Shown in pieces: positions 3,261 through 50,087 of a stretch of DNA of 64,000 bases (positions are counted from its first letter, which is position 1; each line of letters begins with the position of its first letter). The stretch is from a virus, in IMG/VR virus record IMGVR_UViG_3300040751_002535. One strand, 5' to 3'. The notes under the pieces were generated by a model. The model searched no databases. It was given only the letters and a program-made list of their open reading frames with translations, and was not told the DNA's origin. Position numbers and translations under genes: made by a program.

Positions 3261-3271
3261 AGGATAAAGAA

Positions 3272-6200: not shown

Positions 6201-9200
6201 TTGCAGGCGGATTGTTTGTTGACGGATATGCAGGTAATATGCCTGCAACTATTGACACAGTAAATAGTGCATTTAGTATTAGTGTAAGTTCACCGACTGA
6301 TCAAGGTTTATTTGTAAGAAGACCTCCTACACCGTTTCCGTTCTTTATCAACGGTGCAAGATATCAAGTTAACACAATATCTGCATACGATAAAGCTGCC
6401 GGAACTGCTACATTTATTTTAGATGAAACCAGTAATCCAAGCGAAAGTACATCACGCAACATAGATAATATTACACAGGCAGCAACCGCTGTGCTGCGCA
6501 CAACTACTGCACATCCATACTCAGATGCAGATCGTATTACAATCAGTAATGTAAATGGTATGGTTGAAATAAACAGTGCTACGTTGTATGTTAAAACCAC
6601 AATCAATCCAAATGAAGTCGAACTATATACCGATGCAGCTCTAACAGCAGGTTATAATACTAGTGCATTTAGTGCATACACAGGCAGCGGCCTTGCTCAA
6701 ACGTTTGTAGTTGGTCGAGGGTATACTGGCAGCACTGGTGTTGACATATTTGTACAAAGTGGTGGTAACAGAAGTATGTTAGCAAACGACTTTACACAAA
6801 TCAACGATTTAGGGTTTGGTGCATTATGTGTTAACAACGCACTAGCAGAACTTGTTAGTATGTTTACATACTATTGTCATACTGGATATCTTGCACTAGA
6901 CGGATCTCAAATACGTAGTCTTGGAGGCAACAACAGTTATGGTATTTACGGACTGGTTTCGGCAGGCGCAGATCCAGATGAAGTTGCTACAGATGTTACA
7001 CTAGGTGCTAATATGGTATTTCCTGGAAAAACATTTAGAGCAGATGGCATATTAGATTTTTCAGCTGCGGCACCGTCTACAGGAAATATTAGTGCAGGAC
7101 AAACACTAACACAAGGCTTGATCAATGCTACTATTACCGCTGTTACACAAGCAAGTCCAGCATCAGTTACTGCAACTGGACATGGGCTAACCAATGCCGA
7201 TCTAGTTACAATATCTGGAGTTGTTGGTATGACAGAACTAAATGGCTTGCAGTTTTATGTAAGTGTAACAAATGTTAACGAATTTACATTGTACACTGAC
7301 GCTGGATTAAGTTCTGCATATGATTCTTCAACCAACACTGCATACACTAGTGGAGGTGTTGCAACTAGAGCAGCTAATGCGACAGGTATACTAAGTTTCA
7401 CAGGTGAAGAAGATGGTAGTGGAGATCCTACTAGATTGTATGTACATACCACAACAGGAACATTCAACACAACTGCAACTATTACTTCACCTACAAGTAC
7501 AAATGTTGGTATTCCGGCAACAGTTACAACACTAGACAATGATGCACCAGAAGATTCGTTGTTTATGTATGTTTATGATTTAAAAGAATATCCTCATAAC
7601 GTAAGTGAAGTTGAAATACTACACAATACTGGATTGTATCAACCATATGAAATAACAAACGCAAGTGATGCTAACTTTACATTAAGTAGTTACGATATTG
7701 ACACTAGTAGTGCAGTCGGACTTACAGGTACATACACTGCCGATACAGCTATTTTTAAAGTCAAGAAAACACGAGCTGACAACTACAGTGTTGATATTAC
7801 AGGAGGCGGCAGTGGAGCAGGTGCAGCCGGCGAGACAATCATTATTCCAGGTACACTGCTTGGCGGTGCTACACCTGCTAACGATGCTACTATTACAACA
7901 ACAGATGTAGACGGTGGAGTAATAACGGCTGCTAGTATTGCAGGTACTCCGAGATTTGATGATAGTACTCCTGTGCGTGATGGTAAAGTATGGAAGTTAA
8001 ACTTTGGTACTGGACTCGAAGGAACAGCATCAAATGGTTTACAAGAAAATACTGATCACGATACCAAACTTGTAATACGTCACAAGCAAAACTTCTTACT
8101 CGATGACTTTGGTACAGAAGAACTACCAACTCGTCCAAGTACAGCATTTACTTTCACGCAAGATACTACAGAGTATGTGTATCGTACTATTCTATTCGGC
8201 AATCAAATCACAGATGGAGTAACTACAGCGGCTAGCCAGCGTATGGTAACATTTGATAGTAACTTTAGATACACTGATTTAAGCGTTAATCAAAGTATAA
8301 TAACCGCTACTGAAAGTTTCTTTAGTGCTAACAGTACTGTAGATTCAAACTATACTGATATTGTAGCTGCTGCCACACCAAGTGCAACTATTACAATGGG
8401 TGCTACTGCTGCAACTACAAGCACAGACGGGAGTAGATTTATTGCAATCGGGCAACTAGATGCTACTGAAAGAACACGTTTAGCAAATGCTGATATGATT
8501 GTTACATGGGGCGGCAAAACCTATCAGATAGATGACTATGCAGAATACTCATACACAGGTGGCAGCGGTACTGTTGCAATGGCTGTAATACAGATTTCTG
8601 ATGTTGCTAATACAGATATTCACTGGCCTGCATTGAATCCTGGACTTGCTAAGACATTGGTCAACAGTGGTGGTATAACACTAAAAGCTGGATTATCATC
8701 TGGAGAAGCAGCAGAGATTACTGTTAACATTAGTACCAACAGAGCAACAGGACACGATATGCTTGACATTGGTACAGGTGGATTTAACACCAGTAACTAT
8801 CCAGAACGTATTTACGGTTCACCATTTGGATTTGCTCCTGTTTCATCCGGCGATGCAATCGACAGTACTGGTAATGCAAGTGCAGCACAAGTACAAGAAC
8901 GCAACAAAGGTCGTGTTTTTGCTACACTTACTGACCAAGATGGTTTCTTCCGTGTAGGTAGATTCTTTACAGTCGACCAAGGTACTGGTAGTGTTACATT
9001 CAATGCTGCACTTGTTCTTACAAACATTGATGGTATTGGATTTAAGCGTGGTGTGCGTGTTAACGAGTTTAGCAACGACGATACGTTTACTGATGCCAAA
9101 GGCGATGCAGTACCAACACAGACTGCAACAGAAGGTTACATAGATCAGCGTTTAGGATTTGATAGAGATGGCGCTACAGGCGGTACAGTTATCGGTCCAG

Positions 9201-10363
9201 GCGTAATGAGTTTAGGTGGTCCAGGGTTTAGTCAAACTATTATGAACAGTGACATGAACTTGGGTAGTAATCGTATTACTAACTTAGGAACACCAACTGC
9301 TTCAAGTGATGCTACAACAAAACAATATGTTGATCAAAAAACAGATCAACTAAATGATATCGGCGATGTAACTATTACAGGAACAGGCGCTCCTATCACT
9401 AGCAACATTTTAGCATTTGTAGGAACTAATCAACAAAGTGTAAATGTTGAAGTAACTGGCGATATTGGACTTACATATACAAGTGGTAATAGTATTACAG
9501 CAAATATCAATACTGGTGTTATTGTTAACAATGATATTAATGCTAGTGCTGCAATAGATCAAAGCAAACTTAATATGAATGCTGCGACTACAAGAGTAAA
9601 TGCAGTTGGTATTACACAAGCAGACTTAGGGTTGGCGAGTTTCCATAGTACACAGTTTACATCAACCAATGGCTGGATAGAGCTTGAAGACTTGGGTGTT
9701 GTAAATGCTAAACTAGCAAATGATGATGTAACTATTGGTGGCACTAGTATTGCACTTGGTGCAACAAGTACAAGTATTACAGGCTTAACAGGTCTTACAT
9801 TTGATAGTGGTACTATTAGTGGTACCGTTGGTATAAACATCACAGGTAGCATTACACATACAGGTAATATTGTAGGTCCAGCAAACAGCGGCGCAGACAA
9901 TGGTGTGAGTATTGGTAGTAGTACAAATAGATACAACACTGTATGGGCAACAACATTTAATGGTGAAGCAACCGCAGCACTATATGCCGACCTTGCAGAG
10001 AACTATTTAGGTGATGCAGCATATGAACCAGGAACAGTACTTGTATTTGGCGGTGATGAAGAAGTTACTGCATGTACTGCTAAAGGACAAACTAGTGCAG
10101 CAGGTGTTGTTACAACCAATCCAGCACACTTAATGAATAGTGCATTGCAAGGCGAACATGTAGTAGGTGTAGCACTACAAGGGAGAGTCCCTTGTAAAGT
10201 TATTGGTAAGGTTGCCAAAGGTGACATGCTTGTTACAAGTGCTGTACCAGGTTATGCTATTGTCAACAACACACCAAATGTCGGACAAGTTATTGGTAAG
10301 GCAGTTGGAACAAAGGACGACAGCGAACGTGGTGTTGTTGAAGTAGTAGTAGGGAGAGTATAA
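3272..10363 (+). CDS. giant baseplate/tail fibre protein
   Basis: T4 gp9/gp10-like N-terminus (GNDGTGDSIRESFKKVNTNFTELY); two FCCH-like repeats; DAxTKxYVD fibre motifs; C-terminal YADLAENY...ALQGRVPCKV domain. Confidence 0.8.
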   Translation: MARQEVDIGIEGNDGTGDSIRESFKKVNTNFTELYAVFGLGGAISFKNIDDVPDSYLGNTGAITAVNSTETGLNFYKFVSDTGNNGSDKAVNTINNSVVVEFDDVDPATPNQSGTVKIIINDPHIERDPDPVLNAPLNAQAVTAYSNAINTTLRNTGAGDDINTLVTNWATTHPGSAAISTDNVIISKGYADDNYVNVAGDTMTGALNVPASATGTQVPQTQEVITRAGSETNRRMLDTLYLADHPNPLEGFGAPNGKDDLQAVTKLYVDTQGYASATNIYVSTSGDDSQKAAPAGQEGRSPQYAYKSVNAAMIKAESIIEATPYEPGPYVQQVTYDNGAVNSIIDSITGYTSPATAVAASNLAVSNTNSIQEFVQDYIEVNFADLTYDIQLCKRDVQLMIDSVRLDVNAGLTVNYLSRWAGLRYNANPSAIKAQVDQGAATRASIAVVRAQLVSAFNDANTAAPGTISASVITAYTDRFNEIIDILSGTDVALAATGAGYTFAFTNGTNAAVDQGGEGNPDLIEGKIIVGKLSGAKGIITDYTRSASVTTDSIVVDLVEPIEFIAGEELEFGNITRNNQITVRIESGIYYEHLPIKLPENVSIKGDEFRRVVLRPKPGVSQSKWNHTYFYRDIVTDGLISAYSPAATLTNVSADDPARTLGTYQIGVDDWGSNGAGVKATFQVIVLSGGACTVTITSGGDGFIVGETITINDSKIGAGGGADLTFDIATTGGGYHFTHPVSGKQGKYGYHYVSDPSKIADVGTDATSNPGNFKEAARLIELNKAYLVEETIEYVNATYPSLVYNETKCRRDTGLIVDGIVKDLRVGGRENTLTNQGAYYAGAVAGQETETAAAITNLKAIITNVLANDSGNGYAGTGSVAQIFDEDYTAETESNTQSTALVDCVAYFNNVNYNPPLNNSEMDVLLCNDGTIVRNITVQRQGGFMMVLDPEGQILTRSPYCQTGSSFAQSKGTNRNFAGGLFVDGYAGNMPATIDTVNSAFSISVSSPTDQGLFVRRPPTPFPFFINGARYQVNTISAYDKAAGTATFILDETSNPSESTSRNIDNITQAATAVLRTTTAHPYSDADRITISNVNGMVEINSATLYVKTTINPNEVELYTDAALTAGYNTSAFSAYTGSGLAQTFVVGRGYTGSTGVDIFVQSGGNRSMLANDFTQINDLGFGALCVNNALAELVSMFTYYCHTGYLALDGSQIRSLGGNNSYGIYGLVSAGADPDEVATDVTLGANMVFPGKTFRADGILDFSAAAPSTGNISAGQTLTQGLINATITAVTQASPASVTATGHGLTNADLVTISGVVGMTELNGLQFYVSVTNVNEFTLYTDAGLSSAYDSSTNTAYTSGGVATRAANATGILSFTGEEDGSGDPTRLYVHTTTGTFNTTATITSPTSTNVGIPATVTTLDNDAPEDSLFMYVYDLKEYPHNVSEVEILHNTGLYQPYEITNASDANFTLSSYDIDTSSAVGLTGTYTADTAIFKVKKTRADNYSVDITGGGSGAGAAGETIIIPGTLLGGATPANDATITTTDVDGGVITAASIAGTPRFDDSTPVRDGKVWKLNFGTGLEGTASNGLQENTDHDTKLVIRHKQNFLLDDFGTEELPTRPSTAFTFTQDTTEYVYRTILFGNQITDGVTTAASQRMVTFDSNFRYTDLSVNQSIITATESFFSANSTVDSNYTDIVAAATPSATITMGATAATTSTDGSRFIAIGQLDATERTRLANADMIVTWGGKTYQIDDYAEYSYTGGSGTVAMAVIQISDVANTDIHWPALNPGLAKTLVNSGGITLKAGLSSGEAAEITVNISTNRATGHDMLDIGTGGFNTSNYPERIYGSPFGFAPVSSGDAIDSTGNASAAQVQERNKGRVFATLTDQDGFFRVGRFFTVDQGTGSVTFNAALVLTNIDGIGFKRGVRVNEFSNDDTFTDAKGDAVPTQTATEGYIDQRLGFDRDGATGGTVIGPGVMSLGGPGFSQTIMNSDMNLGSNRITNLGTPTASSDATTKQYVDQKTDQLNDIGDVTITGTGAPITSNILAFVGTNQQSVNVEVTGDIGLTYTSGNSITANINTGVIVNNDINASAAIDQSKLNMNAATTRVNAVGITQADLGLASFHSTQFTSTNGWIELEDLGVVNAKLANDDVTIGGTSIALGATSTSITGLTGLTFDSGTISGTVGINITGSITHTGNIVGPANSGADNGVSIGSSTNRYNTVWATTFNGEATAALYADLAENYLGDAAYEPGTVLVFGGDEEVTACTAKGQTSAAGVVTTNPAHLMNSALQGEHVVGVALQGRVPCKVIGKVAKGDMLVTSAVPGYAIVNNTPNVGQVIGKAVGTKDDSERGVVEVVVGRV

Positions 10364-12814: not shown

Positions 12815-15800
12815 ATGGCACTACCAAGCTGGACTAAAATATCAGGATCAGAACTTGCAAGTATACAAGAAAGAACTGATGTTAGCATTGCATTACCGCT
12901 AGAAGAAACAAGTGGTATAACAGTTACGCTGATATCTGGTGCATTGCCAACTGGACTTCGTATTAATGATTATCGTATAAAAGGTGTTGCAGTCGAAGTT
13001 AGTAAAACCACTGAGTTTGAGTTTGTTTTGAGAGCAAGTAATATTGAAGGAATAGCTGACAGAACTTACAAAATCGTAGTTGAAGGAGCCGATGCTCCTG
13101 TGTGGCAAACACCCGAAGGTGAACTAGGATTAACTAGAAGTTTCAGAAATCAATACTGGGTCGATACTCTTAATACCGAGTGGGGAATATATGAATCAAA
13201 TGCTGGTAGCAGTTGGTTGGCTGTTGATGTTGATGTGTACGAAACTATTCCGAGTAGAGAAACAGGTAATAGTGGCGACTATGCTTATGTAAGCAGTTTA
13301 AAACAGTTTTGGTATAAAGTCGATACACGCTGGTATAGAATAAACACAACACAAATACAAGGCATACTTGGTAATGATAAAACACTTGCTATTTCAAGTA
13401 CTGTGCCTAATCCTAACATAGATGATTTTTGGTTCAACACCAATAAAAGCAACGACGGATTAAATCTAGTATTAAGATATTGGGACGAAGTTGCAATGGT
13501 ATGGAAGCCACTAGATTATGTTGTAAGTAAAACACCTCCAATATCACCGTTTGAAGATCAGATATGGGTTCACATTTTTGATGATACATTTGACTTTCAA
13601 ATAAAAGTTTATAATGACAGCGAAAATATTTGGGAACTGGTTGATGCTACTTATAGTACAACTCCTCCAGATAGACTTAATATTGCTTACTTTATTTTAG
13701 ACAGCAGCATAGTTGACTTTCAGTTAGAAGCAATAGATAGAGATTTAACAACTGGACAAAGTCTAAGATATTTTATTGCAGATGAAGACGGAGAGTTGCC
13801 TCCAGGTCTGAAACTTACAGAGGATGGAAAAATATCAGGTATTGTTGATCCATTATTATCTTTGGATGTGGATGACGCAGCAGGGTATGACACCGGCGAG
13901 TACGATACTGTACCATTGGACTTGGTTGTATTGGACGACGATGGCTACGATAGTTATTTTTATGACACTACATTTTATGGATTTAGTACACCAACAAGAC
14001 GTCCAACAAAACTAAATCGCAAGTATACCTTTTCTGTAACAGTCGAAGATGATACTAGTTTTAGCAAACGTGAGTTTAGTATTTTTGTTGTAGGAGATGA
14101 CTTCTTGCGTTCAGACAATACTATTATGAAAGCTGCTACAGGATTATTTACAGCAGACAACACATATCTACGCAAACCAGTATGGCTAACATCTGGAAAT
14201 CTTGGAGTCAAGAGAGCAGAAAACTATGTTACCATCTTCTTGGATGTATACGATCCAAACTCCTTACTAGGTCAAATAAGCTACAATCAACAACCATTTA
14301 ATGACGATGGCACTCCAAGTGTGCTGCCTCCAGGGTTAGTACTCGATGGAATCACAGGAGAACTAGCAGGAACAATACCATATCAACCAGCTGTTAATAG
14401 AGAATACAAGTTTACTGTCGAAGCATTGAGACAAGAAGTAGATAGCGATGATGTAGTAGAAATAAATATCGGTGTATATGAAGATACACTCACCGGCACA
14501 TCTCAAATAAAAATAAACAAACTTCCTATTAATAGAGACGACGGTGTCGACGATCTATTAAGTCTCATTGAGCAAGACATAGTTATTGATAATCTAAGTT
14601 ACACTGTAAGAAGTGTTAACAATGAAAATTCTGAATACGACTTATTAAATCTTAGTAGACCTTTGGAGCCAACATACAAAGCTAAACGTATTAAAACTGC
14701 ATATAATAATGCCATTGGGCAGGATTATATATACATACTTGATGACGGCGATAATAGAGTAGATGCTTGGAAAAATAAAACACTAAAATATAGTGCATCT
14801 GAAGCATATACTTTAGTAGATAATGATAAACAAAACATTCTTGGAACAACTATTACACGCAAATGGCATACTATGGTAAGATACACTATCGATGCTGGTG
14901 ATAGTTCGGGAAACTTAGATTTAAACTACGGTGTTGCTAATATAGTTGATACGGGCGATTATGTAGCAGATTTTGAAACTTGGCTAGCAGGCAAAGGTAT
15001 TGATACTACATACTTGTACAAAAGAGTAAGCTCAACACCTACACAACTAATATTTGATATCCCACGTAACTCTATTGTTGAAAATACTATTATGAATCAA
15101 AACCTGTTTCATACCGATGACAGTGTGTATGGAAACTTGGAAATAACTCGTGGGCAACAGTTCTTTAAAGTATTTTTAGATAACACACTGCAACGTGCAT
15201 TTAATCTATCAAATACGTTAGACGAACAATCAGGTCCGCAGATTACATTAGGAGTGTTTAAAGATACACTGATTACTAAAAAAATCGGTGTAACAAATGT
15301 TGATACTATAAGCACTATAAAAACATTCACTGTAAATATATTAGGAGAAGTTGATAGTACAGTAGCATGGATAACCAAGCCAGACTTGGGTACTATTCCT
15401 GCTAATAGAACAAGTTACTTACAACTAGTGGCTAATACTACGTTGGCAGGTAGTAATTTAAGATATGATTTAGTTGGAGGAAAGTTGCCCAACGGATTAA
15501 CACTAAAACGTGATGGCGAAATAGTTGGAAAGCCCAATCAGTATACAACTGGAACAACATTAGGGTTGACCACCATTGATACTAGAACAACAACATTCGA
15601 TAATAGCACTACAACCATTGATAGAAAATATGTATTCAAAGTTCTAGTACGTGATTTGTTTGGTTATAGTAATAGTATACAAGAGTTTACACTAAATGTT
15701 ACAGATACAGATGATAAAGTATATTCAAATGTGTTTATCAAGCCATACTTAAAACCATCACAGCGTACAGTTTTTAACAACTTTATCAACGATTACACAA

Positions 15801-16738
15801 TATTTACACCTGAAAGTATATATCGTCCCTACGATGAAAACTTTGGTCTTAAGAAAGACTTAACAACGTTGGTATATGCAGGCGTCGAATCTAAAAAGTT
15901 AGCTAACTTTGTTGCTAGTACAGCATTAAATCATAAACGCAAACGTTTTGTATTTGGAAACTTAAAAAGCGCAGTTGCTAAAAAAGAAGGAACAAATGAA
16001 GTTTTATATGAAGTTGTGTATGTCGAAATAACAGACCCACAACAGCCAACCAAAGGTAATACAGCAGTATCAATAACATCGCCTACTGCAAACGATTTAA
16101 AAATAAATCAAGTTAAACTTGAAGTTAAAGATGATCAAAGTTCAGCAGAGGTTGGACTTGATACGTTTCGTATAACAATGCGTGAAGGTGATCCAGTAAG
16201 AATAGCTGCTAGTAGTGGTAGTATTTCTATTACGACACGAAGTGGTGAAGTTGATGTTCCAGCACTTGGACAACTTGAAATAGTTTTAAACTCAGGACTA
16301 GTGGTTGTTGTTAGAAGCAGTTCAACCACATCAACATCAAGTGGAGACCCATTTAGATTTAGGCCAAAAACAAATGTACTAACAGTTGACAATGTTGGTG
16401 TAAAAACAAGTCAAACTCAAAATGTAAAAAGATTTATTAGTAACATAGGAAATATGAGAAAACGTATTGCTGATATTGGTGCAAATGATAGACAGTTTTT
16501 ACCTTTATGGATGAGAAGCAGTCAAACAACTACTGGACAAGAGCTTGATTATATAACAGCAATGCCTATATGTTATTGCAAACCAGGAACAAGTGCAAGT
16601 ATTATTGAGAATATTCAAAATGCAAACTTTGATTTTAGTCAGCTAGATTATGACATAGATAGATATATAGTTGATAGAACAGAAAATAACGAAAACCAAC
16701 AGTTCATTCTGTTTAATGATTACAAACTAAATGTATAA
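12815..16738 (+). CDS. virion structural protein with putative Ig-like repeats (baseplate wedge-like)
   Basis: repeated GxLPxGLxL...G.I.G motifs. Confidence 0.75.
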   Translation: MALPSWTKISGSELASIQERTDVSIALPLEETSGITVTLISGALPTGLRINDYRIKGVAVEVSKTTEFEFVLRASNIEGIADRTYKIVVEGADAPVWQTPEGELGLTRSFRNQYWVDTLNTEWGIYESNAGSSWLAVDVDVYETIPSRETGNSGDYAYVSSLKQFWYKVDTRWYRINTTQIQGILGNDKTLAISSTVPNPNIDDFWFNTNKSNDGLNLVLRYWDEVAMVWKPLDYVVSKTPPISPFEDQIWVHIFDDTFDFQIKVYNDSENIWELVDATYSTTPPDRLNIAYFILDSSIVDFQLEAIDRDLTTGQSLRYFIADEDGELPPGLKLTEDGKISGIVDPLLSLDVDDAAGYDTGEYDTVPLDLVVLDDDGYDSYFYDTTFYGFSTPTRRPTKLNRKYTFSVTVEDDTSFSKREFSIFVVGDDFLRSDNTIMKAATGLFTADNTYLRKPVWLTSGNLGVKRAENYVTIFLDVYDPNSLLGQISYNQQPFNDDGTPSVLPPGLVLDGITGELAGTIPYQPAVNREYKFTVEALRQEVDSDDVVEINIGVYEDTLTGTSQIKINKLPINRDDGVDDLLSLIEQDIVIDNLSYTVRSVNNENSEYDLLNLSRPLEPTYKAKRIKTAYNNAIGQDYIYILDDGDNRVDAWKNKTLKYSASEAYTLVDNDKQNILGTTITRKWHTMVRYTIDAGDSSGNLDLNYGVANIVDTGDYVADFETWLAGKGIDTTYLYKRVSSTPTQLIFDIPRNSIVENTIMNQNLFHTDDSVYGNLEITRGQQFFKVFLDNTLQRAFNLSNTLDEQSGPQITLGVFKDTLITKKIGVTNVDTISTIKTFTVNILGEVDSTVAWITKPDLGTIPANRTSYLQLVANTTLAGSNLRYDLVGGKLPNGLTLKRDGEIVGKPNQYTTGTTLGLTTIDTRTTTFDNSTTTIDRKYVFKVLVRDLFGYSNSIQEFTLNVTDTDDKVYSNVFIKPYLKPSQRTVFNNFINDYTIFTPESIYRPYDENFGLKKDLTTLVYAGVESKKLANFVASTALNHKRKRFVFGNLKSAVAKKEGTNEVLYEVVYVEITDPQQPTKGNTAVSITSPTANDLKINQVKLEVKDDQSSAEVGLDTFRITMREGDPVRIAASSGSISITTRSGEVDVPALGQLEIVLNSGLVVVVRSSSTTSTSSGDPFRFRPKTNVLTVDNVGVKTSQTQNVKRFISNIGNMRKRIADIGANDRQFLPLWMRSSQTTTGQELDYITAMPICYCKPGTSASIIENIQNANFDFSQLDYDIDRYIVDRTENNENQQFILFNDYKLNV

Positions 16739-17354: not shown

Positions 17355-17587
17355 TACATCCTCATCAGCCTGATTTAAGTGAGTTTACAGAAACACAACT
17401 TGAAGAAAAGTTACTCAAGTTGAATCATATGTATTTCATAACCGATAATCCTGATGTAAGACAGCAGATGATTTTGTTAATAGATGGCTACAAACTTGAA
17501 ATAGAAGCTCGTAGAGCAGCAGCTAGAAGAAAACAAATTGAAGATCAAGAAGATAATTCACTTGACGATTTAATAAATGTAAGTTAA
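17351..17587 (+). CDS. hypothetical protein
   Basis: 78 aa, ATGA coupled to upstream gene. Confidence 0.65.
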   Translation: MIHPHQPDLSEFTETQLEEKLLKLNHMYFITDNPDVRQQMILLIDGYKLEIEARRAAARRKQIEDQEDNSLDDLINVS

Positions 17588-17590
17588 ACT
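17562..17590 (+). promoter_or_regulatory. sigma70-type promoter
   Basis: TTGACG-N17-TAAACT, ATG 6 nt downstream. Confidence 0.6.
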
Positions 17591-17596
17591 TACTGT

Positions 17597-18118
17597 ATGC
17601 TAATGAAAACAGACACTCTCGGTATCCCACGGTTTACAAACAAAGACTTAATCGATATGATCTATAGTGGTCATGCGGATAAAATGCATGTGGTATTGTG
17701 CGATGCTAACGACGATGTAGACAAGTTCAATGTCGCCATGGAAGAGCAAGGCTTTGATAAACTACAAAAGTATATCCCCTTAGATGTAGACCAAAAGACT
17801 TTTGACGGTGCGTTACAGAGTGAATGGTTTATGCCAGATGAATATAAAGAACTCAGTGTGTCTGCACATGTTTTAGATCGTTGTACAACTGATGCACAGC
17901 GACAGCGAGTAGAAGAAGAACTTACAGCGTTCAATGAACGAGGACTAGTTCCTTTACTACAATATATGATCTATCTTGTAGACTTTATGCGTGAGAATGA
18001 TATTGTATGGGGTGTAGGACGTGGATCGAGTGTAGCAAGTTATGTACTGTATTTGATTGGTGTGCATCGTATTGACAGTATTAAATACGATTTAGACTGG
18101 CGTGAATTCTTACGATGA
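17597..18118 (+). CDS. DNA polymerase III alpha (DnaE) fragment, stand-alone
   Basis: RVEEEL...GVGRGSSVASYVLYLIGVHRIDSIKYDLDWREFLR resembles the DnaE GPGRGS...FERFLN region. Confidence 0.85.
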   Translation: MLMKTDTLGIPRFTNKDLIDMIYSGHADKMHVVLCDANDDVDKFNVAMEEQGFDKLQKYIPLDVDQKTFDGALQSEWFMPDEYKELSVSAHVLDRCTTDAQRQRVEEELTAFNERGLVPLLQYMIYLVDFMRENDIVWGVGRGSSVASYVLYLIGVHRIDSIKYDLDWREFLR

Positions 18119-19992
18119 ATATTTACTTGGTTCAAGCAAGTGATAATCATGGACCAAATAAGTTTTTACCACTTGCAATAGGGTATCAATGGTGCTATGG
18201 TAAAAACGATAACTGGACTCTTAAAGACGTTCTTATAGAAAAAATTAATCCTATAGATTATGTAGCAACTATGCAACAACCTAAACTAGTTGCAATGAGT
18301 AGTTATGTATGGAACTGGGAATACAACAGAGAACTTGCCATACAAATCAAACGTAAGTTTAGACAATGCAAGATTATTACAGGCGGCCCGCAAATAAACA
18401 AGTACGATCCTGATTTCTTTGACAAGCATCCTATGTTTGATGCGTTTGTACACGGCGAGGGCGAAGAAGCATTTAAGCGCATACTTGCAGGTGATGACTG
18501 GAAAGATATTCCCAACGTACAAACATTGTATCATATGCCAGAGCCAGCAGTGCGTAGGAAAAACATAAATGATATACCTTCGCCTATACTAGAAGGCTTT
18601 TATGAACCTATTATGGCAAAGTATCCTGAGGACACCATGTTTCAAGTTACTTGGGAAAGTTTGCGGGGCTGCCCATACCATTGCAGCTTTTGTGATATAG
18701 GGGAAAGTTACTGGAATAAACTTACACTGTTTGATATGGAACGTTGTAAAGCAGAAATAGAATGGATGGGTAAAAACCGTATTGAATATGTTAGCGTGTG
18801 CGATAGCAACTGGGGCATGTTGGATAGAGATTATGAACTAACACAACACGTATTAGAAACAAAGAAAAAATACGGATACCCCAAATGGTGGGATGCAACT
18901 TGGAGTAAAAATAATCACGATAAAAACTATGCGATAGCAAAATATGCACACGATAGTGGCGTTGATATTTTCAAAGGTATTACAGTAGCATTACAAAGTT
19001 TTAACGATGATACATTAGAACATGTAGATAGATTTAATTTGGACTTTGACGAACTTAAAAAATATTTTGATCAGTATAAAAAAGATGGTATTAAAACTTA
19101 TAGCGAACTTATATGGCCATTGCCTGGAGAAACATTCGATAGTTTAAAGTCTGGTATACAGCAACTTATAGATGCAGGACAAGACAACTATCTCATGATA
19201 CACCCATTAGTTGTTACTGACAACTCTCCAATGGGTAACAAAACATATCAAGAGCAGCATGGTTTAGATGTGCGTAAGATAGCATTAGACACTGTGTATT
19301 TAGATGCAGATGAAAAATATATTACGGAATACACTGATGTAATATACGCTACAGACACAGCAGACCACGATACAGTTATCGAAGGGCACATGTATAGTTG
19401 GTTAGTAATATTAATGTATTACTATGGTTGGGGACATTATCTTGCTAAGTACATGCGTAAGCAAAATATTTTAGAAACTGACCTGTATTATAAACTATTT
19501 GAATGGATCAAACACAATCCGGGATTATTACATGACGAATACATAGAAACTAAAAAAAGTTTTGAAGATGTATATGCAAAACGTGCATTGTGGGGTAGAC
19601 AAGCATTTGGTGGAGACGATATGCTTTGGGAATACAAAGGCGCAAGTAGTGCAAGGATAAGTAAAGCAGTATATAGACTAGAAACAGATTTATATAACTT
19701 TTTATTAAGTACAAAACTAATATCGGAATGGAAAGTACGTGATATTGTTGCTCTCAATCTTAGAATGTGCAGAGAAAAAGATATGGAATATCCTATTACT
19801 GTAACTGTTTTAAAAGAAGTTGCACGTGATATGGTAGGTATTGATGCAGATCGTATACATATCGATCATTTTGATAAAACAACACCAACAAACGATTGGC
19901 ACAGAAAAGCATATCATTATCAAAGAAAAATAGGATACTGGAAATGCAATGCATCAAAAAGTAAAAAACCACTTGACATATGTCATAAGTAG
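18115..19992 (+). CDS. B12-binding radical SAM protein
   Basis: N-terminal cobalamin-binding region (SSYVWN, ITGGPQ, HGEGE) plus RGCPYHCSFC. Confidence 0.88.
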   Translation: MNIYLVQASDNHGPNKFLPLAIGYQWCYGKNDNWTLKDVLIEKINPIDYVATMQQPKLVAMSSYVWNWEYNRELAIQIKRKFRQCKIITGGPQINKYDPDFFDKHPMFDAFVHGEGEEAFKRILAGDDWKDIPNVQTLYHMPEPAVRRKNINDIPSPILEGFYEPIMAKYPEDTMFQVTWESLRGCPYHCSFCDIGESYWNKLTLFDMERCKAEIEWMGKNRIEYVSVCDSNWGMLDRDYELTQHVLETKKKYGYPKWWDATWSKNNHDKNYAIAKYAHDSGVDIFKGITVALQSFNDDTLEHVDRFNLDFDELKKYFDQYKKDGIKTYSELIWPLPGETFDSLKSGIQQLIDAGQDNYLMIHPLVVTDNSPMGNKTYQEQHGLDVRKIALDTVYLDADEKYITEYTDVIYATDTADHDTVIEGHMYSWLVILMYYYGWGHYLAKYMRKQNILETDLYYKLFEWIKHNPGLLHDEYIETKKSFEDVYAKRALWGRQAFGGDDMLWEYKGASSARISKAVYRLETDLYNFLLSTKLISEWKVRDIVALNLRMCREKDMEYPITVTVLKEVARDMVGIDADRIHIDHFDKTTPTNDWHRKAYHYQRKIGYWKCNASKSKKPLDICHK

Positions 19993-20022: not shown

Positions 20023-20439
20023 ATGGGAACTAGACAAAAAGGTCGTAAAACATACAGAAGTATGCAAGGTAGAGTTGTAGACTTAGATATGTTGATTAAA
20101 AGAAATGAACTTACTCCTGCCGTCGGCAATGCTAGAGTAAATGCTAGAGGCGACGAGCTAGGACCAGGTGGAAAAATTATCCGTAAACGAGAAGAAGTTG
20201 TAAAGGATTATTATAGTACAGGAAGTGAACCTGTACAACATGAAAAAAGTGCAGCTCAAACTGAAGAGCTAACACAAGCAGAACAAGAAGAGTTGATGGC
20301 GTTTGATGAAGAAGTTGTTCCCGCAAAACCAAAAGCATCGCCTCCTAAATCAACTCCAACTCCTAAACCCATAACAGCCCAGACTCAAGATGAATGGGTT
20401 GAAGACGAAGATGGCAATTTTATAAAAAAAGGTGATTAA
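20023..20439 (+). CDS. hypothetical phage protein
   Basis: GGAG RBS; AVGNARVNARGDELGPGGKII. Confidence 0.75.
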   Translation: MGTRQKGRKTYRSMQGRVVDLDMLIKRNELTPAVGNARVNARGDELGPGGKIIRKREEVVKDYYSTGSEPVQHEKSAAQTEELTQAEQEELMAFDEEVVPAKPKASPPKSTPTPKPITAQTQDEWVEDEDGNFIKKGD

Positions 20440-20846
20440 TGGCATTAAACATGAATACAATAAAAGGTACTCTAACTCCTATTAATGATAGAGTAATTGT
20501 AAGCAATATGTACTTTGGAGAGCAAACTCTTAAAAGTGGACTTATTATTAGTGATGATAACGGATCAACTCGTGGTATCTATCCACGCTGGGGACAGGTA
20601 CATGCAAAAGGTCCTAAAAATGATTCAGCATATCAGATTGGAGATTGGGTATTGATTGAACACGGACGCTGGACTCGAAGTGTAAAGATTGATGAAGGTA
20701 CAGGCGAGCTAGAGCTACGTATGGTAGATGCAGATTGTATATTAGCATTTAGTAATGAAAAACCCACTGGTGTACAGTTTGGTAAAGAATACAACGATGG
20801 TGATCATGCAACGATTAGTCCAGAATCATTTGGAGCCGGCGCATAA
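20439..20846 (+). CDS. groES: co-chaperonin GroES-like protein
   Basis: LTPINDRVIV, KSGLII, GQVHAKGP, IGDWVL. Confidence 0.8.
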   Translation: MALNMNTIKGTLTPINDRVIVSNMYFGEQTLKSGLIISDDNGSTRGIYPRWGQVHAKGPKNDSAYQIGDWVLIEHGRWTRSVKIDEGTGELELRMVDADCILAFSNEKPTGVQFGKEYNDGDHATISPESFGAGA

Positions 20847-21202
20847 TGACAAACCCATTTAAAGATATTGACACGTTTGCAACAGCGTGTGACCAACCGC
20901 CTAGTGAAGCAAACTACAAAATGTACCTCAGTCTCATTGACGAAGAATACGATGAACTGTTAGATGCTGTAGTAGCACAAGATCGTGTAGAACAGCTTGA
21001 TGCACTAGTAGATATTCTTGTTGTAACTATGGGCGCTATTCGTGCAGCTGGCTGGGACGGCGAAGCGGCTTGGAAAGAAGTAATGGACACGAACTTTGCA
21101 AAGATTGATCCAACTACAGGCAAAGTACGCAAACGTGAAGATGGTAAAGTACTCAAGCCAGAAGGCTGGAAAGCACCTGAACTAGCACAGTTTGTAGGCT
21201 AA
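20846..21202 (+). CDS. MazG-like NTP pyrophosphohydrolase
   Basis: LIDEEYDEL, LDALVDILVV, NFAK, REDGKVLKPEGW. Confidence 0.85.
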   Translation: MTNPFKDIDTFATACDQPPSEANYKMYLSLIDEEYDELLDAVVAQDRVEQLDALVDILVVTMGAIRAAGWDGEAAWKEVMDTNFAKIDPTTGKVRKREDGKVLKPEGWKAPELAQFVG

Positions 21203-21223
21203 ATACTACAAAGGAGAACTGCT

Positions 21224-21847
21224 GTGAATAAATCTGATATCAAAAAAGCAATTATTAGAAGTCAACATTGTCAACGTAACTGGGATTTAAGTAAAACTAT
21301 TCCAGATGAGGATATCGAGGTTATTAGAACAGCCGTTGCCGATTGTCCTAGTAAACAAAATGTAGCATATTACAAAGTTATATTTGTTACAGATAGAGAT
21401 AAGATTGAACGTATATATCAAACAACCAACGGTTTTATCTCTAACTTTCAAACAAATGAAACTGTCACAAACAGTCAGGTATTAGCAAATTTATTGGTCG
21501 TATTTGCTGAATCAAACGAAGAACCAAAAGAAAATATTTTTGGAGATGTATTTGTTCCAAGCAAGGATTTAGAAAAGCCTGAAGACTTGCTCAAAGACAA
21601 ACACATGGCAGTGGGTATTGCAGCAGGATATGCAAATATTACAGCAAGTATGCTAGGTTATAGCACAGGTTGTTGCGCATGTTTTGATCCTGCACAAGTT
21701 GCAGAAATATTAGATATTGATACACATGTACATTTGTTGATGGGTATAGGATTCAAAGACGAAACTCGTCCACGACGTGAACATCACGCAGAGGATTTTG
21801 TTTTTCCCACCAAGAAGAAACAAAAAATACAAGTGGATAAATGCTAA
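21224..21847 (+). CDS. nitroreductase family protein
   Basis: RSQHCQRNWD, CPSKQN, LGYSTGCC, LLMGIG; follows CTAAATA late-type motif. Confidence 0.8.
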   Translation: MNKSDIKKAIIRSQHCQRNWDLSKTIPDEDIEVIRTAVADCPSKQNVAYYKVIFVTDRDKIERIYQTTNGFISNFQTNETVTNSQVLANLLVVFAESNEEPKENIFGDVFVPSKDLEKPEDLLKDKHMAVGIAAGYANITASMLGYSTGCCACFDPAQVAEILDIDTHVHLLMGIGFKDETRPRREHHAEDFVFPTKKKQKIQVDKC

Positions 21848-22749
21848 ACGGTAGAATACTTAAAAACGAAAAAATACTAGTTCATGCATTACAATGGTAT
21901 ATCGGTCATAGTTGTAACTTAACTTGTACAAACTGTAGTAACTTTAATAACTTTGCTATTAGTGGACAAGAAAAGTTTAGTGACTTTGCAAGAGAAGCAC
22001 AGAGATGGAGTGAAAAACTTCATGTAAATGATTTTGGTATTATTGGTGGCGAACCTTTTACAAACAATGATTTAGATAACTGGGTTCACGGATTACGTGA
22101 TGTATTCACTTGTAGAGATTTTAGAGTGGTAACAAACGGGACTTTATTATCTAAACATGCAGATAAAATGAAAGCCTGGTTTGACAGAGGAGTTACTGTA
22201 GAACTTAGTTTTCATTCGCAGGATCATGTTCCTAAAGCATTTAAAATCATTGACGAAGTTCTAGATGGCAAATACGAAAAGTACAAGGTAACAAAAAACA
22301 ACTTTATCAAAGATCAAGCACGCCATGCTGGATGCTATTACGAAGAAGCTATTCTTGTAGGTGATCATCCAGCATTTATAATAAACTACAAAGACAAGTT
22401 TATGCCATGGGGTGTAAAAAGTATCGACAACGGTGTTTATAACTTTTATGAAAGTGATAGAGAGCAAGCACACACTGCATGTTGGCACAATGATTGTCCG
22501 TATATATACAAAGGTAAAATGTACAAATGCGGCACTGTTGTAGGAGCACAAGCGTTTGTTAAGAAATATCCTGTAAGAAAACAGGATAAAGATCTATATG
22601 AAAGCTATAAACCCATTGATGCATTTTCAAATACACTAGAAGAACAGGTATCTGCACTTTCAAATAGTGTACCACAATGTGTATTATGTCCTATTAACTC
22701 TGGTAGTGTAGAAAAGATTTCACTTGACAAAAAGAAAATTATGCCGTAG
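21841..22749 (+). CDS. radical SAM protein
   Basis: CNLTCTNC, GGEPF, VTNGTLL, C-terminal Cys cluster. Confidence 0.85.
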   Translation: MLNGRILKNEKILVHALQWYIGHSCNLTCTNCSNFNNFAISGQEKFSDFAREAQRWSEKLHVNDFGIIGGEPFTNNDLDNWVHGLRDVFTCRDFRVVTNGTLLSKHADKMKAWFDRGVTVELSFHSQDHVPKAFKIIDEVLDGKYEKYKVTKNNFIKDQARHAGCYYEEAILVGDHPAFIINYKDKFMPWGVKSIDNGVYNFYESDREQAHTACWHNDCPYIYKGKMYKCGTVVGAQAFVKKYPVRKQDKDLYESYKPIDAFSNTLEEQVSALSNSVPQCVLCPINSGSVEKISLDKKKIMP

Positions 22750-22752
22750 TAT
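22724..22752 (+). promoter_or_regulatory. sigma70-type promoter
   Basis: TTGACA-N17-TAGTAT. Confidence 0.7.
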
Positions 22753-22782
22753 AAAATATACAAAACAACAACGAGGCATATT

Positions 22783-23307
22783 ATGATTCACGCAATGATC
22801 GACTTAGAAACACTAGATGTAACTCCACAAGCAACTGTGCTTACAGTTGGCGGTGTAAAGTTTGATCCCAACAGTGATGCTGAACCGCACAGTGAGTTTT
22901 ACTACAAACTGGATCTAGACTCACAAGATCGTAGTGTAAATGATAGCACTATTGCTTGGTGGGGTCAGCAGGATCAAAAAGTACAAGACGAAGCATTTGG
23001 CACTGAAGGACGAGAGCACGTTGATGTGTTTTTAGATAGTTTGCCAAAGTGGATGGTAGGTGTAGATGTTCTTTGGGGACACGGATACGGTTTTGATATT
23101 ACTATTATTGAAGATATGTTGCGGCAGCGTGGCAAAGGTATTCCATGGCAGTTTTGGCAGGTGCGAGATAGTAGAACATTGTTCAGCATGGCAAAAGTAG
23201 ATCCACGCAAAGCAATGCAAAGTAACTTGCACAATGCACTGGCAGATGCATATTTCCAAGCAAAAGGTGTGCAAATGGTATACAAAGAGTTAGGAATACA
23301 GCGTTGA
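22783..23307 (+). CDS. DEDDh 3'-5' exonuclease (DexA/Rv2179c-like)
   Basis: MIDLETL, WGHGYGFD, RDSRT, HNALADA. Confidence 0.85.
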   Translation: MIHAMIDLETLDVTPQATVLTVGGVKFDPNSDAEPHSEFYYKLDLDSQDRSVNDSTIAWWGQQDQKVQDEAFGTEGREHVDVFLDSLPKWMVGVDVLWGHGYGFDITIIEDMLRQRGKGIPWQFWQVRDSRTLFSMAKVDPRKAMQSNLHNALADAYFQAKGVQMVYKELGIQR

Positions 23308-24463: not shown

Positions 24464-24637
24464 ATGAAAAAACTTTGGAGACTGTGGGCAAAAAGCCTCG
24501 GTGAAAAAGTCGGAGAAACAGACAGCCAAGCAGACAGTGTGGCTGTTATTAGAACCATTTGGTGGTTGACACATATGGTAACTTGCTTTATGATTATTAT
24601 ACATAATGGCGCAAAATTAGGATGGTGGTTAAATTGA
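24464..24637 (+). CDS. small phage membrane protein
   Basis: MKKLWRLWAKSLGEK...ADSVAVIRT. Confidence 0.65.
   Translation: MKKLWRLWAKSLGEKVGETDSQADSVAVIRTIWWLTHMVTCFMIIIHNGAKLGWWLN
24566..24594 (+). promoter_or_regulatory. sigma70-type promoter for the clamp loader operon
   Basis: TTGACA-N17-TATGAT. Confidence 0.6.
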
Positions 24638-25548
24638 AAGAACTCTGGGTAGAAAAATATAGACCTAAAACAGTAGATGGGTATGTGTTTCGAGATGAAG
24701 CACAAAAAGCACAAGTAAACACTTGGATCAAAGACGCAAGCATTCCGCATTTGCTGTTTAGTGGCAATGCCGGAATTGGTAAAACAACACTTGCTAAACT
24801 GTTGTTCAACGAACTTGATGTAAATCCTCTTGATATTCTTGAGATCAACGCAAGTCGTACAAACAGCGTTGAAGATGTGCGAGACAAGATTGTTTCGTTT
24901 GTACAGATGATTCCATTTGGTGACTTTAAAGTTGTATTACTTGATGAGGCTGATTACTTGTCGCCAAACGCACAAGCAGCACTACGTGGTGTTATGGAAG
25001 AGTATCATACTACAGCACGTTTTATTCTAACATGCAACTATCCCAACAGAATCATTCCTGCGATTCACAGTCGTTGTCAAGGGTTTCATATCGCTAAAGT
25101 TGATCAAACAGAATTTACTGCCAGAGTTGCAACTATTCTTATCACAGAAGGTATTACTCCAGACTTGGACACATTGGACACTTATGTAAAAGCAACATAT
25201 CCAGACTTGCGCAAGTGTATCAACATGGTACAAATGAATTCAGTAGACGGCAAGTTGATATCACCACAAGAAGGCGACAGCGGCGAAGCTGACTGGAAAC
25301 TTGAAATGGTTGAACTGTTCAAAGCAGGCAAGATTCATGATGCAAGAAAACTGTTGTGCGGCGCGGTACGAGCAGAAGAAATGGAAGAGATTTATCGCTG
25401 GTTGTATGACAACATTGAGTTGTTCGGAACAGATGCTCAACAGGATCAAGCAGTGCTAATTATTAAGCAAGGGTTAGTTGATCATACACTAGTTGTAGAT
25501 CCAGAGATTAATCTTGCAGCAACACTTATTCGATTAGGAGCACTATGA
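24622..25548 (+). CDS. clamp loader AAA+ subunit (RFC small/T4 gp44-like)
   Basis: [26 protein letters not shown] motif. Confidence 0.92.
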
Positions 25549-47405: not shown

Positions 47406-50087
47406 ATGCCATATGTAGATGCATTCTTTGACAGAGATTCGGATATTATTCGAGTAGTCGAACGCAAGGACGGAAAAAGACATTTCCACGAATATCAATC
47501 AAAATACACATTTTATTATGAAGATCCACGTGGTAAGTACAAAAGTATCTACGGCGACCAACTAAGTCGGATTGTATGCAAAAACACCAAAGACTTTAGA
47601 AAAGAACTTGCTATCAACCGTGGCAAAAACTTGTTTGAAAGTGACATTAATCCAATCTTTCAGTGTTTGAGTGAACACTATCTCAATCAAGATGCCCCAA
47701 AGTTGAATGTAGCGTTTTGGGATATTGAGACTGACTTTGATCCAGAGCGAGGATTTGCTCCAGTTGAAGATCCGTTTATGCCTATTACTGCTATTACTGT
47801 ACACTTGCAATGGCTTGACTTGCTAATAACTGTTGCTATGCCTCCCAAAGGCATGCCACTTGAAGAAGCAACAGCAATGTGCAAAAAACGCTGGGGTGAT
47901 AGTTGTATACTATTTCCTAATAACGAAAAAGGCGAGGGCGAAATGCTGAGTATGTTCCTGGATCTTATTGAAGATGCAGACATTCACAGTGGATGGAACA
48001 GTGAAGGGTATGATGTTCCGTATACTATCAACAGAATTAAACGTGTACTAAGCAGTGATGATACACGTAGATTCTGCTTATGGGGACAAAAGCCCAAGCG
48101 TAGAGAATATGAAAAGTTTGGTAAGACAAGTGAGACATATGATACTATCGGAAGAGTACATATGGACTATCTCAACTTGTATCGCAAGTATACATACGAA
48201 GAACGTCATACATATCGACTGGATGCCATCGGCGAACTGGAAGTAGGAGAGAACAAAACTGTATATGAAGGTACACTTGATCAGCTGTACAACAATGACT
48301 TTGAAACTTTTATTGAATACAACAGACAAGACGTTGCACTGTTAGACAAACTAGACAAGAAACTAAAATTTATTGATCTTGCAAATGTACTAGCACACGA
48401 AAATACTGTGTTACTACAAACCACAATGGGTGCTGTTGCACTTACTGAGCAGGCTATTGTTAACGAGTCGCATAGACGTGGTATGCAAGTGCCTAATAGA
48501 AAACAACACGAAGGAAACACAGCAGCAGCAGGCGCATATGTTGCATTTCCTAAAAAAGGTGTGCATGAATGGGTTGGATCAATGGACTTAAACAGCCTGT
48601 ATCCAAGTGTTATTCGTGCATTAAATATGGGCCCCGAAACTGTAGTTGGTCAAATACGATTGGATATTAGCGACGAGCGTATTCACAATGATACAACGCT
48701 CAAAAAGAAGAGCTTTGCAGGCAGCTGGGAAGGACGTTTTGCAACTGAAGAATATGAAGCAGTTATGGAACAAAAACGTGATGTAATGCTTACATTAGAT
48801 TTAGAAAACGGGCAAGAAGAAGTGCTGAGTGCAGCAGAAGTTTGGAAGTTGATTTATGATAGTCATCAGCCATGGATGCTTAGTTCAAACGGTACAATCT
48901 TTACAAACGAGTTTGAAGGTGTTATTCCAGGACTACTAAAACGTTGGTACAGCGAACGTAAAGATCTACAAAAGAATCTTAAAAAAGCAAAAGATGCTAA
49001 GAACGAAGTAGAGATTGAATACTGGGATAAACGTCAGTTGGTTAAGAAGATTAACTTGAACAGTTTGTATGGTGCTATTCTCAATCCAGGTTGTAGATTC
49101 TTTGACAAGCGTATTGGACAGAGTACAACGCTAACAGGTAGAACTATTGTTAAACATATGAGTGCAGAGGTTAATAAGATTATTACTGGTGAGTATGATC
49201 ATGTTGGTAAAGCTGTTATCTATGGCGATACTGACTCTGTGTATTTTAGTGCATATCCTGTACTAAAAGATGACATTGCAGCGGGAAAGATTCCGTGGAC
49301 CAAAGATAATGTAATAAAACTTTATGACCAAGTGTGCGAGCAGGCAAACGAAACATTTCCAGAAATGATGCTAAAAGCATTTCATTGTCCAAAGAGTCGT
49401 AGCGATGTTATTGCAGCAGGTAGAGAGATTGTTGCCGAAACTGGGCTGTTTATCACTAAGAAACGCTATGCAGCACTAGTGTACGACATTGAAGGATTTA
49501 GAACAGATGAAGATGGAAAACTAGGCAAAGTAAAAGCAATGGGCTTGGATCTAAAGCGTAGTGATACGCCGGTGTTTATGCAGGATTTCTTAAAAGATTT
49601 GCTTGATATGGTACTACAGAAAAAACCTGAAAAAGAACTACTTGAAGCTATTAGTCAGTTTAGACGTGAGTTCAAAGATCGTCCGGGATTTGAAAAAGGT
49701 TCGCCTAAACGTGCAAACAAGATTGGACATTATCAGCGTCTTGAAGAAAAGCAAGGCAAAGCAAACATGCCCGGACATGTAAGAGCAAGTATCAACTGGA
49801 ATACACTCAAGCGTATGAACGGCGACAAATATTCGCAAGAGATTGTAGATGGTATGAAAGTTATTGTTTGTAAACTAAAACAAAATCCACTAGGATATAC
49901 AAGTGTTGCATATCCAACAGATGAACTACGTATTCCGGATTGGTTCAAAGAACTGCCATTCGATGGCGATGCTATGGAAGAAGTTATTATTGACAACAAA
50001 CTAGACAACTTGATTGGTGTGTTGGATTATGACTTAGAAAGTACAAAACAAAAAACTACATTTAACAACTTATTTGATTGGGACTAA
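47406..50087 (+). CDS. family B DNA polymerase
   Basis: DIET exonuclease motif, DLNSLYPS, KINLNSLYG, YGDTDS, KKRY. Confidence 0.96.
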   Translation: MPYVDAFFDRDSDIIRVVERKDGKRHFHEYQSKYTFYYEDPRGKYKSIYGDQLSRIVCKNTKDFRKELAINRGKNLFESDINPIFQCLSEHYLNQDAPKLNVAFWDIETDFDPERGFAPVEDPFMPITAITVHLQWLDLLITVAMPPKGMPLEEATAMCKKRWGDSCILFPNNEKGEGEMLSMFLDLIEDADIHSGWNSEGYDVPYTINRIKRVLSSDDTRRFCLWGQKPKRREYEKFGKTSETYDTIGRVHMDYLNLYRKYTYEERHTYRLDAIGELEVGENKTVYEGTLDQLYNNDFETFIEYNRQDVALLDKLDKKLKFIDLANVLAHENTVLLQTTMGAVALTEQAIVNESHRRGMQVPNRKQHEGNTAAAGAYVAFPKKGVHEWVGSMDLNSLYPSVIRALNMGPETVVGQIRLDISDERIHNDTTLKKKSFAGSWEGRFATEEYEAVMEQKRDVMLTLDLENGQEEVLSAAEVWKLIYDSHQPWMLSSNGTIFTNEFEGVIPGLLKRWYSERKDLQKNLKKAKDAKNEVEIEYWDKRQLVKKINLNSLYGAILNPGCRFFDKRIGQSTTLTGRTIVKHMSAEVNKIITGEYDHVGKAVIYGDTDSVYFSAYPVLKDDIAAGKIPWTKDNVIKLYDQVCEQANETFPEMMLKAFHCPKSRSDVIAAGREIVAETGLFITKKRYAALVYDIEGFRTDEDGKLGKVKAMGLDLKRSDTPVFMQDFLKDLLDMVLQKKPEKELLEAISQFRREFKDRPGFEKGSPKRANKIGHYQRLEEKQGKANMPGHVRASINWNTLKRMNGDKYSQEIVDGMKVIVCKLKQNPLGYTSVAYPTDELRIPDWFKELPFDGDAMEEVIIDNKLDNLIGVLDYDLESTKQKTTFNNLFDWD

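Follow-up and report, generated by a model that had tools for sequence, protein, structure and literature searches.

A short open reading frame in phage DNA that resembles one piece of the bacterial polymerase DnaE, and that breaks off just ahead of the catalytic motif, can be read as the remnant of a larger gene, as a domain put to another use, or as one part of an enzyme that is encoded in two places. Such a frame, encoding 173 amino acids, lies at positions 17597 to 18118 of a 64-kb stretch of DNA (64,000 nucleotides, hereafter the window) from an uncultured aquatic giant phage, and the question raised by this locus is which of these it represents. The first-pass annotation had offered two answers, namely a C-family polymerase that is naturally split without an intein, its partner starting near MPDIDIDF at another place in the genome, or a repurposed domain such as an inhibitor of the host replisome. 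The first answer holds in every relative in which it could be tested (9/9, including an IMG/VR genome, here G002, whose partner starts with MPDIDIDF), and the second gained no support. It is very probable that the frame encodes the N-terminal, nucleotide-binding subunit of a two-gene miniature polymerase of the Pol III alpha type (C-family, Pol-beta-like), an enzyme that would be auxiliary to the family B polymerase (PolB).

Split polymerases of this kind are typically found in the jumbo phages of group 2.2 and in related aquatic phages. The group 2.2 enzyme, a split minimal Pol III alpha, was described from sequence by Iyer, Anantharaman, Krishnan, Burroughs and Aravind (Viruses 2021, PMC7824862), so the idea of a split enzyme is not new; these authors also suggested that it acts as an auxiliary polymerase beside PolB, and they proposed the two-gene mini Pol III as a model of the ancestral form of the bacterial replicase. 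The pair is the smallest predicted C-family polymerase, and the family is an attractive and easily expressed biochemical target. A search of the accessible literature found neither a bench test nor a polymerase activity for any member, and a 2026 review of jumbo phages makes no mention of the split mini Pol III. The present analysis adds that the two halves tile DnaE to within about 6 residues (276-393 and 400-784), that both are under strong purifying selection, and that homologues of each half number in the thousands, the family being very common in viral metagenomes of aquatic origin and reaching phages of about 140 kb. For the front-half gene itself the outcome is mainly a correct annotation, the gene being neither a pseudogene nor the founder of a new class.

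The front half and its match to the DnaE palm

The front-half gene and its parts are as follows.

17597..18118 (+): front (NTP-binding) half, very probably of a split minimal Pol III alpha; 173 aa, stop codon inside the coordinates (PF07733, phrog_11127, AlphaFold2)
17597..17803 (+): N-terminal domain, residues 1-69, a predicted small alpha/beta unit (confident AlphaFold2 model; dN/dS 0.11 over residues 1-95)
17804..18115 (+): predicted palm sub-domain, residues 70-173, equivalent to E. coli DnaE 276-393 (VIA-align of the AlphaFold2 model)
18017..18028 (+): GRGS motif, residues 141-144, equivalent to E. coli G361-R362-G363-S364 (invariant in 95 diverse homologues; alignment with the E. coli protein)

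An alternative ATG at 17603 would give a protein of 171 aa, and both starts are used by gene callers. The Pfam profile PF07733 (DNA_pol3_alpha) matches residues 97-172 over profile positions 19-94 of 260 (E 9e-12), and the Pfam scan returned no other domain in the protein. With phmmer, residues 102-172 align with E. coli DnaE 322-392, GRGS included, and the alignment ends where ...REFL stands opposite FERFL; the stop codon follows one residue further, giving the terminus WREFLR ahead of the catalytic PDxDxD. Pfam and phmmer thus agree with the first-pass annotation, which had seen a 173-aa frame matching the GRGS region of DnaE and ending at the equivalent of FERFLN. The phage family profile phrog_11127 is matched over its full length (residues 8-173 on positions 12-171 of 171, E 9e-46), and the protein is about 50% identical to its counterpart in phage PA5oct.

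None of the three catalytic aspartates is present in the front half, and its 173 residues contain no PHP, thumb, finger, clamp-binding or OB domain. The GRGS motif is kept; it is the G-S loop of the Pol-beta-like nucleotidyltransferase fold, which holds the triphosphate in Pol III alpha structures (Lamers et al. 2006, as cited by Iyer et al.). Among the 95 diverse homologues the invariant positions are E108, L121, G139, G141-R142-G143-S144, S148 and L151. Because the C-terminal part maps in its entirety onto the palm, as far as E. coli residue 393, the front half contains no intein; tblastn of two back-half proteins, from phages 121Q and G002, against the whole window gave no match, leaving the front half without a continuation. 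The earlier statements that no intein and no continuation in another frame accompany the gene are borne out on both counts.

The predicted structure places this segment more exactly. An AlphaFold2 model built from the 95-sequence alignment has a mean pLDDT of 94.1, and its residues 70/74-173 superpose by VIA-align on E. coli DnaE 276-393 (Z 10-11, rmsd 2.1-2.6 Å, 96-100 residues), with equivalent matches to M. tuberculosis DnaE1 303-413 (Z 12.2), to Taq 291-455 and to PolC 822-964. When 48,161 representative chains were searched, only seven entries exceeded Z 5, all of them C-family polymerases (Z 8.0-12.2), and the next match stood at Z 3.5; Foldseek by itself gave E 4e-3 with a poor rmsd, and the clear ranges came from VIA-align and the wide search. 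Because the structural matches are confined to the C family, the C-terminal 100 residues can be assigned to the first part of the DnaE palm, and in the model they begin at the PHP-palm junction and reach the loop that precedes the catalytic aspartates. The C-family matches begin only at residue 65-77, and for residues 1-69 neither a DnaE counterpart nor any other match was found by whole-model fold searches or by a protein-atlas features search (scores ≤0.83).

Taken alone, a protein amounting to about 7% of a normal DnaE and cut before the active site might be suspected to be a decaying pseudogene, a captured remnant of a host dnaE gene or an artefact of assembly. This explanation is refuted, and its probability is virtually nil. 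An identical protein flanked by the same genes came out of the assemblies of at least 6 independent samples, the fold is predicted with confidence, and the length is shared by thousands of homologues (at least 7983 of the 8000 scored have 171-176 aa). Within IMG/VR the gene occurs on 521 viral contigs, and among the best 80 of these the terminus W[RTQ]EFLR-stop is kept in 79. The dN/dS ratio, computed against the window's copy with synonymous sites near saturation, is about 0.11 for residues 1-95 and for residues 96-173 alike. An exhaustive HMMER search of 1.84 billion representatives, clustered at 50% identity, gave a similar picture among its best 150 clusters, nearly all of which have 150-222 aa, with a few shorter partial sequences, and in nearly all full-length members the match extends to the C-terminal end. 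The front half is a genuine gene under strong conservation and not a decaying fragment. The first-pass annotation had called for the end point and dN/dS to be checked in relatives, and had named the lack of a partner and an unconserved end point as outcomes that would tell against a split enzyme; the end point is in fact kept, and a partner exists in the relatives. PF07733 has also been noted as a marker of a marine jumbo-phage cluster (PMC9123017).

The back half in relatives and its distance from the front half

The partner protein is recognized by a second phage family profile, phrog_11778. Among phage records, phrog_11127 is found in 101 and phrog_11778 in 96, with nearly identical tallies by genus, and the PHROGs label for both families is 'DNA polymerase'. 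In 121Q, where the front half is gp56, a 211-aa frame at 13282-13914 with T-D-I-D-I-D-F near its start corresponds to phrog_11778 (197 positions, E 5e-108). G002 (IMG/VR, 267.8 kb) is the longest close relative of the window and collinear with it, with a front half that is 77% identical, and here phrog_11778 matches a 190-aa frame beginning M-P-D-I-D-I-D-F. Across 14 sequences the invariant residues of the back half are D3, D5, D7, K63, D65, R132-P133, K163 and H165, most of which are also invariant across 29; H31, G34, K135 and Y169 are likewise invariant across 14-29 diverse sequences, in all of which no more than about 2-12 residues separate the DxDxD motif from the start. The back half of the relatives (about 190 aa) thus bears, besides DxDxD, the third aspartate (K-x-D) and the finger motifs RPxK and FKKAH.

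The link of the back half to DnaE rests on these motifs and on predicted structure, because the evidence from sequence comparison is marginal. The best PDB match of the back-half profile is M. tuberculosis DnaE1 at E 0.019, in four collinear segments (MPDIDIDF, the K-x-D region, ALYRPGP and FNKSHA), PF17657 reaches an E of about 0.05, the protein being too diverged for Pfam, and single-sequence phmmer against the PDB gave no match. PF07733, run over three complete relative genomes, found the front half only. The AlphaFold2 model of the back half (pLDDT 92.5) contains the five-stranded palm sheet, and its residues 1-190 superpose on E. coli DnaE 400/401-784 (Z 8.2), on Taq 461-868 (Z 9.4), on M. 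tuberculosis 419-854 (Z 9.1) and on PolC 970-1299. All 13 top entries of the fold search are C-family polymerases, and the next, a non-polymerase, has Z 3.3. In E. coli numbering, the front half breaks off at residue 393 and the back half sets in at 400, leaving a gap of about 6 DnaE residues. As modelled, the two halves tile the palm and part of the fingers, and the thumb and much of the fingers are deleted.

Both halves occur, once each, in all nine long related records: 121Q, MIJ3, Atu_ph07, G002, SCTP-2, Slickus01 (a 141.6-kb circular genome) and the IMG/VR contigs G006, G007 and G008 (99-302 kb). Four further records lack the back half, and these are fragments with an estimated completeness of 13-32%. 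In none of the nine are the halves adjacent; the spacing is smallest in G007 (about 4.5 kb) and Slickus01 (11 kb), intermediate in 121Q and PA5oct/MIJ3 (31-44 kb) and largest in Atu_ph07 and G002 (about 180-210 kb). Alishewanella phage Slickus01 (OQ508957.1, 141,644 bp) is a complete genome in which about 11 kb separate the two halves, and the mini Pol III is accordingly not restricted to phages larger than 200 kb.

Fusions of front and back half were not seen among the longer front-half proteins, although this is weak evidence. Five such proteins were found, all of them odd singletons without a back half: one is an upstream read-through, and in the others the front half is fused to a kinase, a peptidase, a transporter or a fragment of ribonucleotide reductase. 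In one of them (P0392, 666 aa, from a single ENA contig of 5.6 kb) a front half ending ...EEFLE continues in frame into the C-terminal part of ribonucleotide reductase. This singleton, the sole 'fusion' in which the front half is N-terminal, is probably an artefact of gene calling or assembly.

The back half lies two to three genes from a DNA primase or primase-helicase gene in PA5oct (143938-144540) and in Atu_ph07 (58304-58864). The annotated start of the Atu_ph07 gene (58798) is probably mis-called, since a protein begun there would lose the DIDID motif, which lies within the tblastn match (from 58864).

Within the window, the back half was found neither by a six-frame motif scan nor by tblastn of the 121Q and G002 back halves, and tblastn of the five genes that neighbour the back half in G002 gave no match either. 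The scan, for P[DE]xDx[DE] and DxDx[DE], returned a single candidate (M-A-K-E-D-F-D-F-D-F at 30007), which was dropped because the frame has a peptidoglycan-binding domain and no polymerase match and is read as a cell-wall enzyme. According to the protein database, the front-half gene of this phage is on a contig of 145,762 bp; none of the 120 back-half homologues listed comes from that contig, which is weak evidence only. In G002, whose back half lies at 18.4-18.9 kb, the segment collinear with the window extends from about 253 kb downwards to about 196 kb. On that collinearity the partner is expected outside the contig, roughly 180 kb rightwards of the window or, should the genome of about 350 kb be circularly permuted, about 120 kb leftwards. 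The absence of the back half from the window is uninformative, because collinearity puts the partner beyond the contig, and its presence in this genome is inferred from the relatives.

The enzyme predicted from the two halves

Two further features of the window define the replication context in which the pair would act.

24622..25548 (+): gp44-type clamp-loader AAA+ subunit (AAA and DNA_pol3_delta2 domains; 56% identical to MIJ3 'dnaX', E 1e-131)
47406..50087 (+): complete family B DNA polymerase (DNA_pol_B E 2e-38, DNA_pol_B_exo1 E 1e-16; 78% identical to the G002 protein)

The complete PolB that the first-pass annotation had listed is thus present, and it is the main replicase of the phage. 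PolB together with a T4-type clamp loader in the window gives the group 2.2 context. The locus resembles the type of Iyer et al.: the N-terminal unit (phrog_11127, with phrog_11778 as partner) is a stand-alone protein of about 170 aa that holds the nucleotide-binding GS portion of the palm of Pol III alpha, a distant gene encodes the partner with the Mg2+-binding aspartates both in that type and in the relatives of the window, PolB and the T4-type clamp loader are present, and the gene order is common with PA5oct/MIJ3, Atu_ph07 and 121Q. Nothing essential differs; the present copy comes from an aquatic phage, and a radical SAM gene is inserted behind the front half.

Compared with bacterial Pol III alpha (E. 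coli DnaE, 2HNH; M. tuberculosis DnaE1, 5LEW; Taq, 2HPI) and PolC, the front half superposes on DnaE 276-393 with GRGS kept, and the partner on 400-784 with three aspartates. The bacterial enzyme is a single chain of more than 1000 aa, whereas the phage pair consists of 173 and about 190 aa, lacks the PHP, thumb, HhH and OB domains and the clamp-binding motif, and has an extra N-terminal domain of 69 residues; the PF07733 match, limited to positions 19-94 of 260, is likewise not that of a full-length DnaE or PolC. The cyanobacterial DnaE, which is divided into DnaE-N and DnaE-C and joined by protein trans-splicing, is also a C-family polymerase made from two distant genes. The phage pair differs from it in lacking intein halves (the front half stops one residue past the DnaE-like palm segment, and the back halves start 2-12 residues before DxDxD) and in the place of the split, which falls within the palm immediately ahead of the catalytic motif rather than in the fingers.

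With no intein halves available to join them, the two pieces must act as a non-covalent complex if they act together, and such docking is suggested by their complementary mapping and co-occurrence. In the model of the front half alone, the segment before GRGS (residues 134-144) has no sheet partner. In the assembled enzyme this strand would join the edge of the partner's palm sheet and would thereby bring the GRGS loop over the metal site, so that a single Pol-beta-like active site is rebuilt, and the 69-residue N-terminal domain may serve as the docking module. An enzyme without a thumb, a clamp-binding motif or a proofreading domain would be expected to act as a low-processivity, short-patch DNA polymerase, auxiliary to PolB, in repair, in gap filling or on one strand. 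Processive synthesis is doubtful because the pair lacks the thumb, clamp-binding and exonuclease domains.

The same losses could be taken to mean that the halves assemble and yet do not carry out template-directed DNA synthesis, acting instead as a terminal transferase, as a primer-making enzyme, or as the maker of a nucleotide signal or a DNA modification. The core is that of a Pol-beta-like nucleotidyltransferase, a fold which serves many such reactions, the OB and PHP domains are missing along with the thumb and the clamp-binding motif, and the phage already has a complete PolB with an exonuclease domain. This role is nonetheless distinctly unlikely, as the back half retains, invariant or nearly so, the RPxK and FKKAH motifs by which DnaE contacts the template and the incoming nucleotide, and its model follows DnaE through residue 784. 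Iyer et al. also read the pair as a template-binding polymerase (PMC7824862).

Promoter and gene neighbourhood of the front half

The immediate surroundings of the front half, all on the same strand, comprise the following features.

17562..17590 (+): sigma-70-type promoter-like site, TTGACG-N17-TAAACT, ending 6 nt before the ATG (consensus scan, 9/12 matches)
18115..19992 (+): B12-binding radical SAM gene, 625 aa, with its ATG overlapping the front-half stop as ATGA (PF04055, PF02310)
20023..20439 (+): conserved small neighbour, 138 aa (p138), homologous to 121Q gp57, MIJ3_00131 and Atu_ph07 gp315 (E 1e-8 to 5e-16)
20439..20846 (+): GroES/gp31-like co-chaperonin (Cpn10 E 6e-4; annotated chaperonins of MIJ3, Atu_ph07 and 121Q, E 5e-19 to 4e-26)

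The first-pass annotation had credited the gene with its own promoter. By count, the site TTGACG-N17-TAAACT in the window is no better than expected by chance in the consensus scan, but the element is present and conserved: in 80 relatives the consensus reads TTGACA-N17-TAAAAT-N6-ATG, with TTGAC and the -10 element at least 90% conserved, even at synonymous sites of the upstream gene, in whose last codons the -35 element (TTGAC) is embedded. As the promoter ends only 6 nt from the ATG, a leaderless or nearly leaderless mRNA is implied. It is plausible from this arrangement that the front half has an early, leaderless transcript from a sigma-70-type promoter of its own, and in the proposed mechanism it would probably be expressed in this manner.

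A conserved promoter of its own, a fixed place beside chaperone and clamp-loader genes far from the back half, an extra N-terminal domain with no assigned role and the lack of any catalytic aspartate are features that would also suit a front half acting by itself as a non-catalytic factor, either as a decoy for, or inhibitor of, the Pol III holoenzyme of the host or as an adaptor in the phage replisome, with the link to the back half being incidental. A decoy has no obvious need of the triphosphate-binding GRGS loop, in which invariant residues of the family lie, and the region of DnaE that is copied (276-393) is, to our knowledge, not a contact site for the clamp, tau or epsilon in the E. coli holoenzyme. 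No more than about 6 DnaE residues, moreover, separate the end of the front half from the start of the back half, and both genes are present in 9/9 long genomes. A stand-alone decoy or inhibitor is thus very unlikely, because conservation centres on the loop of the catalytic site and is accompanied by strict co-occurrence and residue-level complementarity with the back half.

If the front half is, as preferred here, one subunit of a two-gene auxiliary polymerase, its permanent separation from the other could itself be functional and not merely historical. In that case the active site would form only with both transcription units switched on, providing a timing switch for an error-prone, proofreading-free polymerase, and the N-terminal domain would dock onto the T4-type replisome. 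This proposal is unlikely, although some basis for it can be cited: the halves are never adjacent or fused and lie 4.5 to more than 200 kb apart, the front half has its own promoter in a block of clamp-loader and chaperone genes, and the back half is near primase genes in PA5oct and Atu_ph07.

Downstream of the front half, an array running from the front half through p138 and the GroES-like gene to, further on, the clamp loader is common to the window, MIJ3/PA5oct, Atu_ph07 and 121Q. The gene directly downstream in the window is indeed a radical SAM, as first annotated and as PF04055 and PF02310 confirm. A radical SAM gene holds this place in 7/61 relatives (59-97% identical) and p138 in the other 54/61, and the radical SAM gene is absent from G002. 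From this distribution it is a lineage-specific insertion outside the split-polymerase system, and it looks like a mobile or lineage-specific passenger.

Several other groups of genes were encountered in the window. A run of auxiliary enzymes is encoded at 20846-23304 (+). It comprises a pyrophosphatase of the MazG/PRA-PH-like type and a nitroreductase, together with another radical SAM protein at 21841-22749 and, at 22750-23304, an Rv2179c-like 3'-5' exonuclease. The third radical SAM gene of the window is at 60903-61841 (+), and three radical SAM genes in 64 kb are unusual for a phage. The region is also enriched in genes for chaperones and protein quality control (20439-20846, 32478-33284, 33259-33783 and 33758-36016, all +), this set consisting of the GroES-like protein, a full DnaJ with J domain and C-terminal domain, a peptide deformylase and a 753-aa ClpB-like double AAA+ protein. 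Upstream of the front half, two giant frames at 3242-10360 (+) and 12815-16738 (+) encode proteins of 2373 and 1307 aa that are 41-47% identical to their G002 counterparts. The larger contains two copies of an E1_FCCH-like domain and the smaller a faint He_PIG match, and both are probably tail-fibre or other virion proteins.
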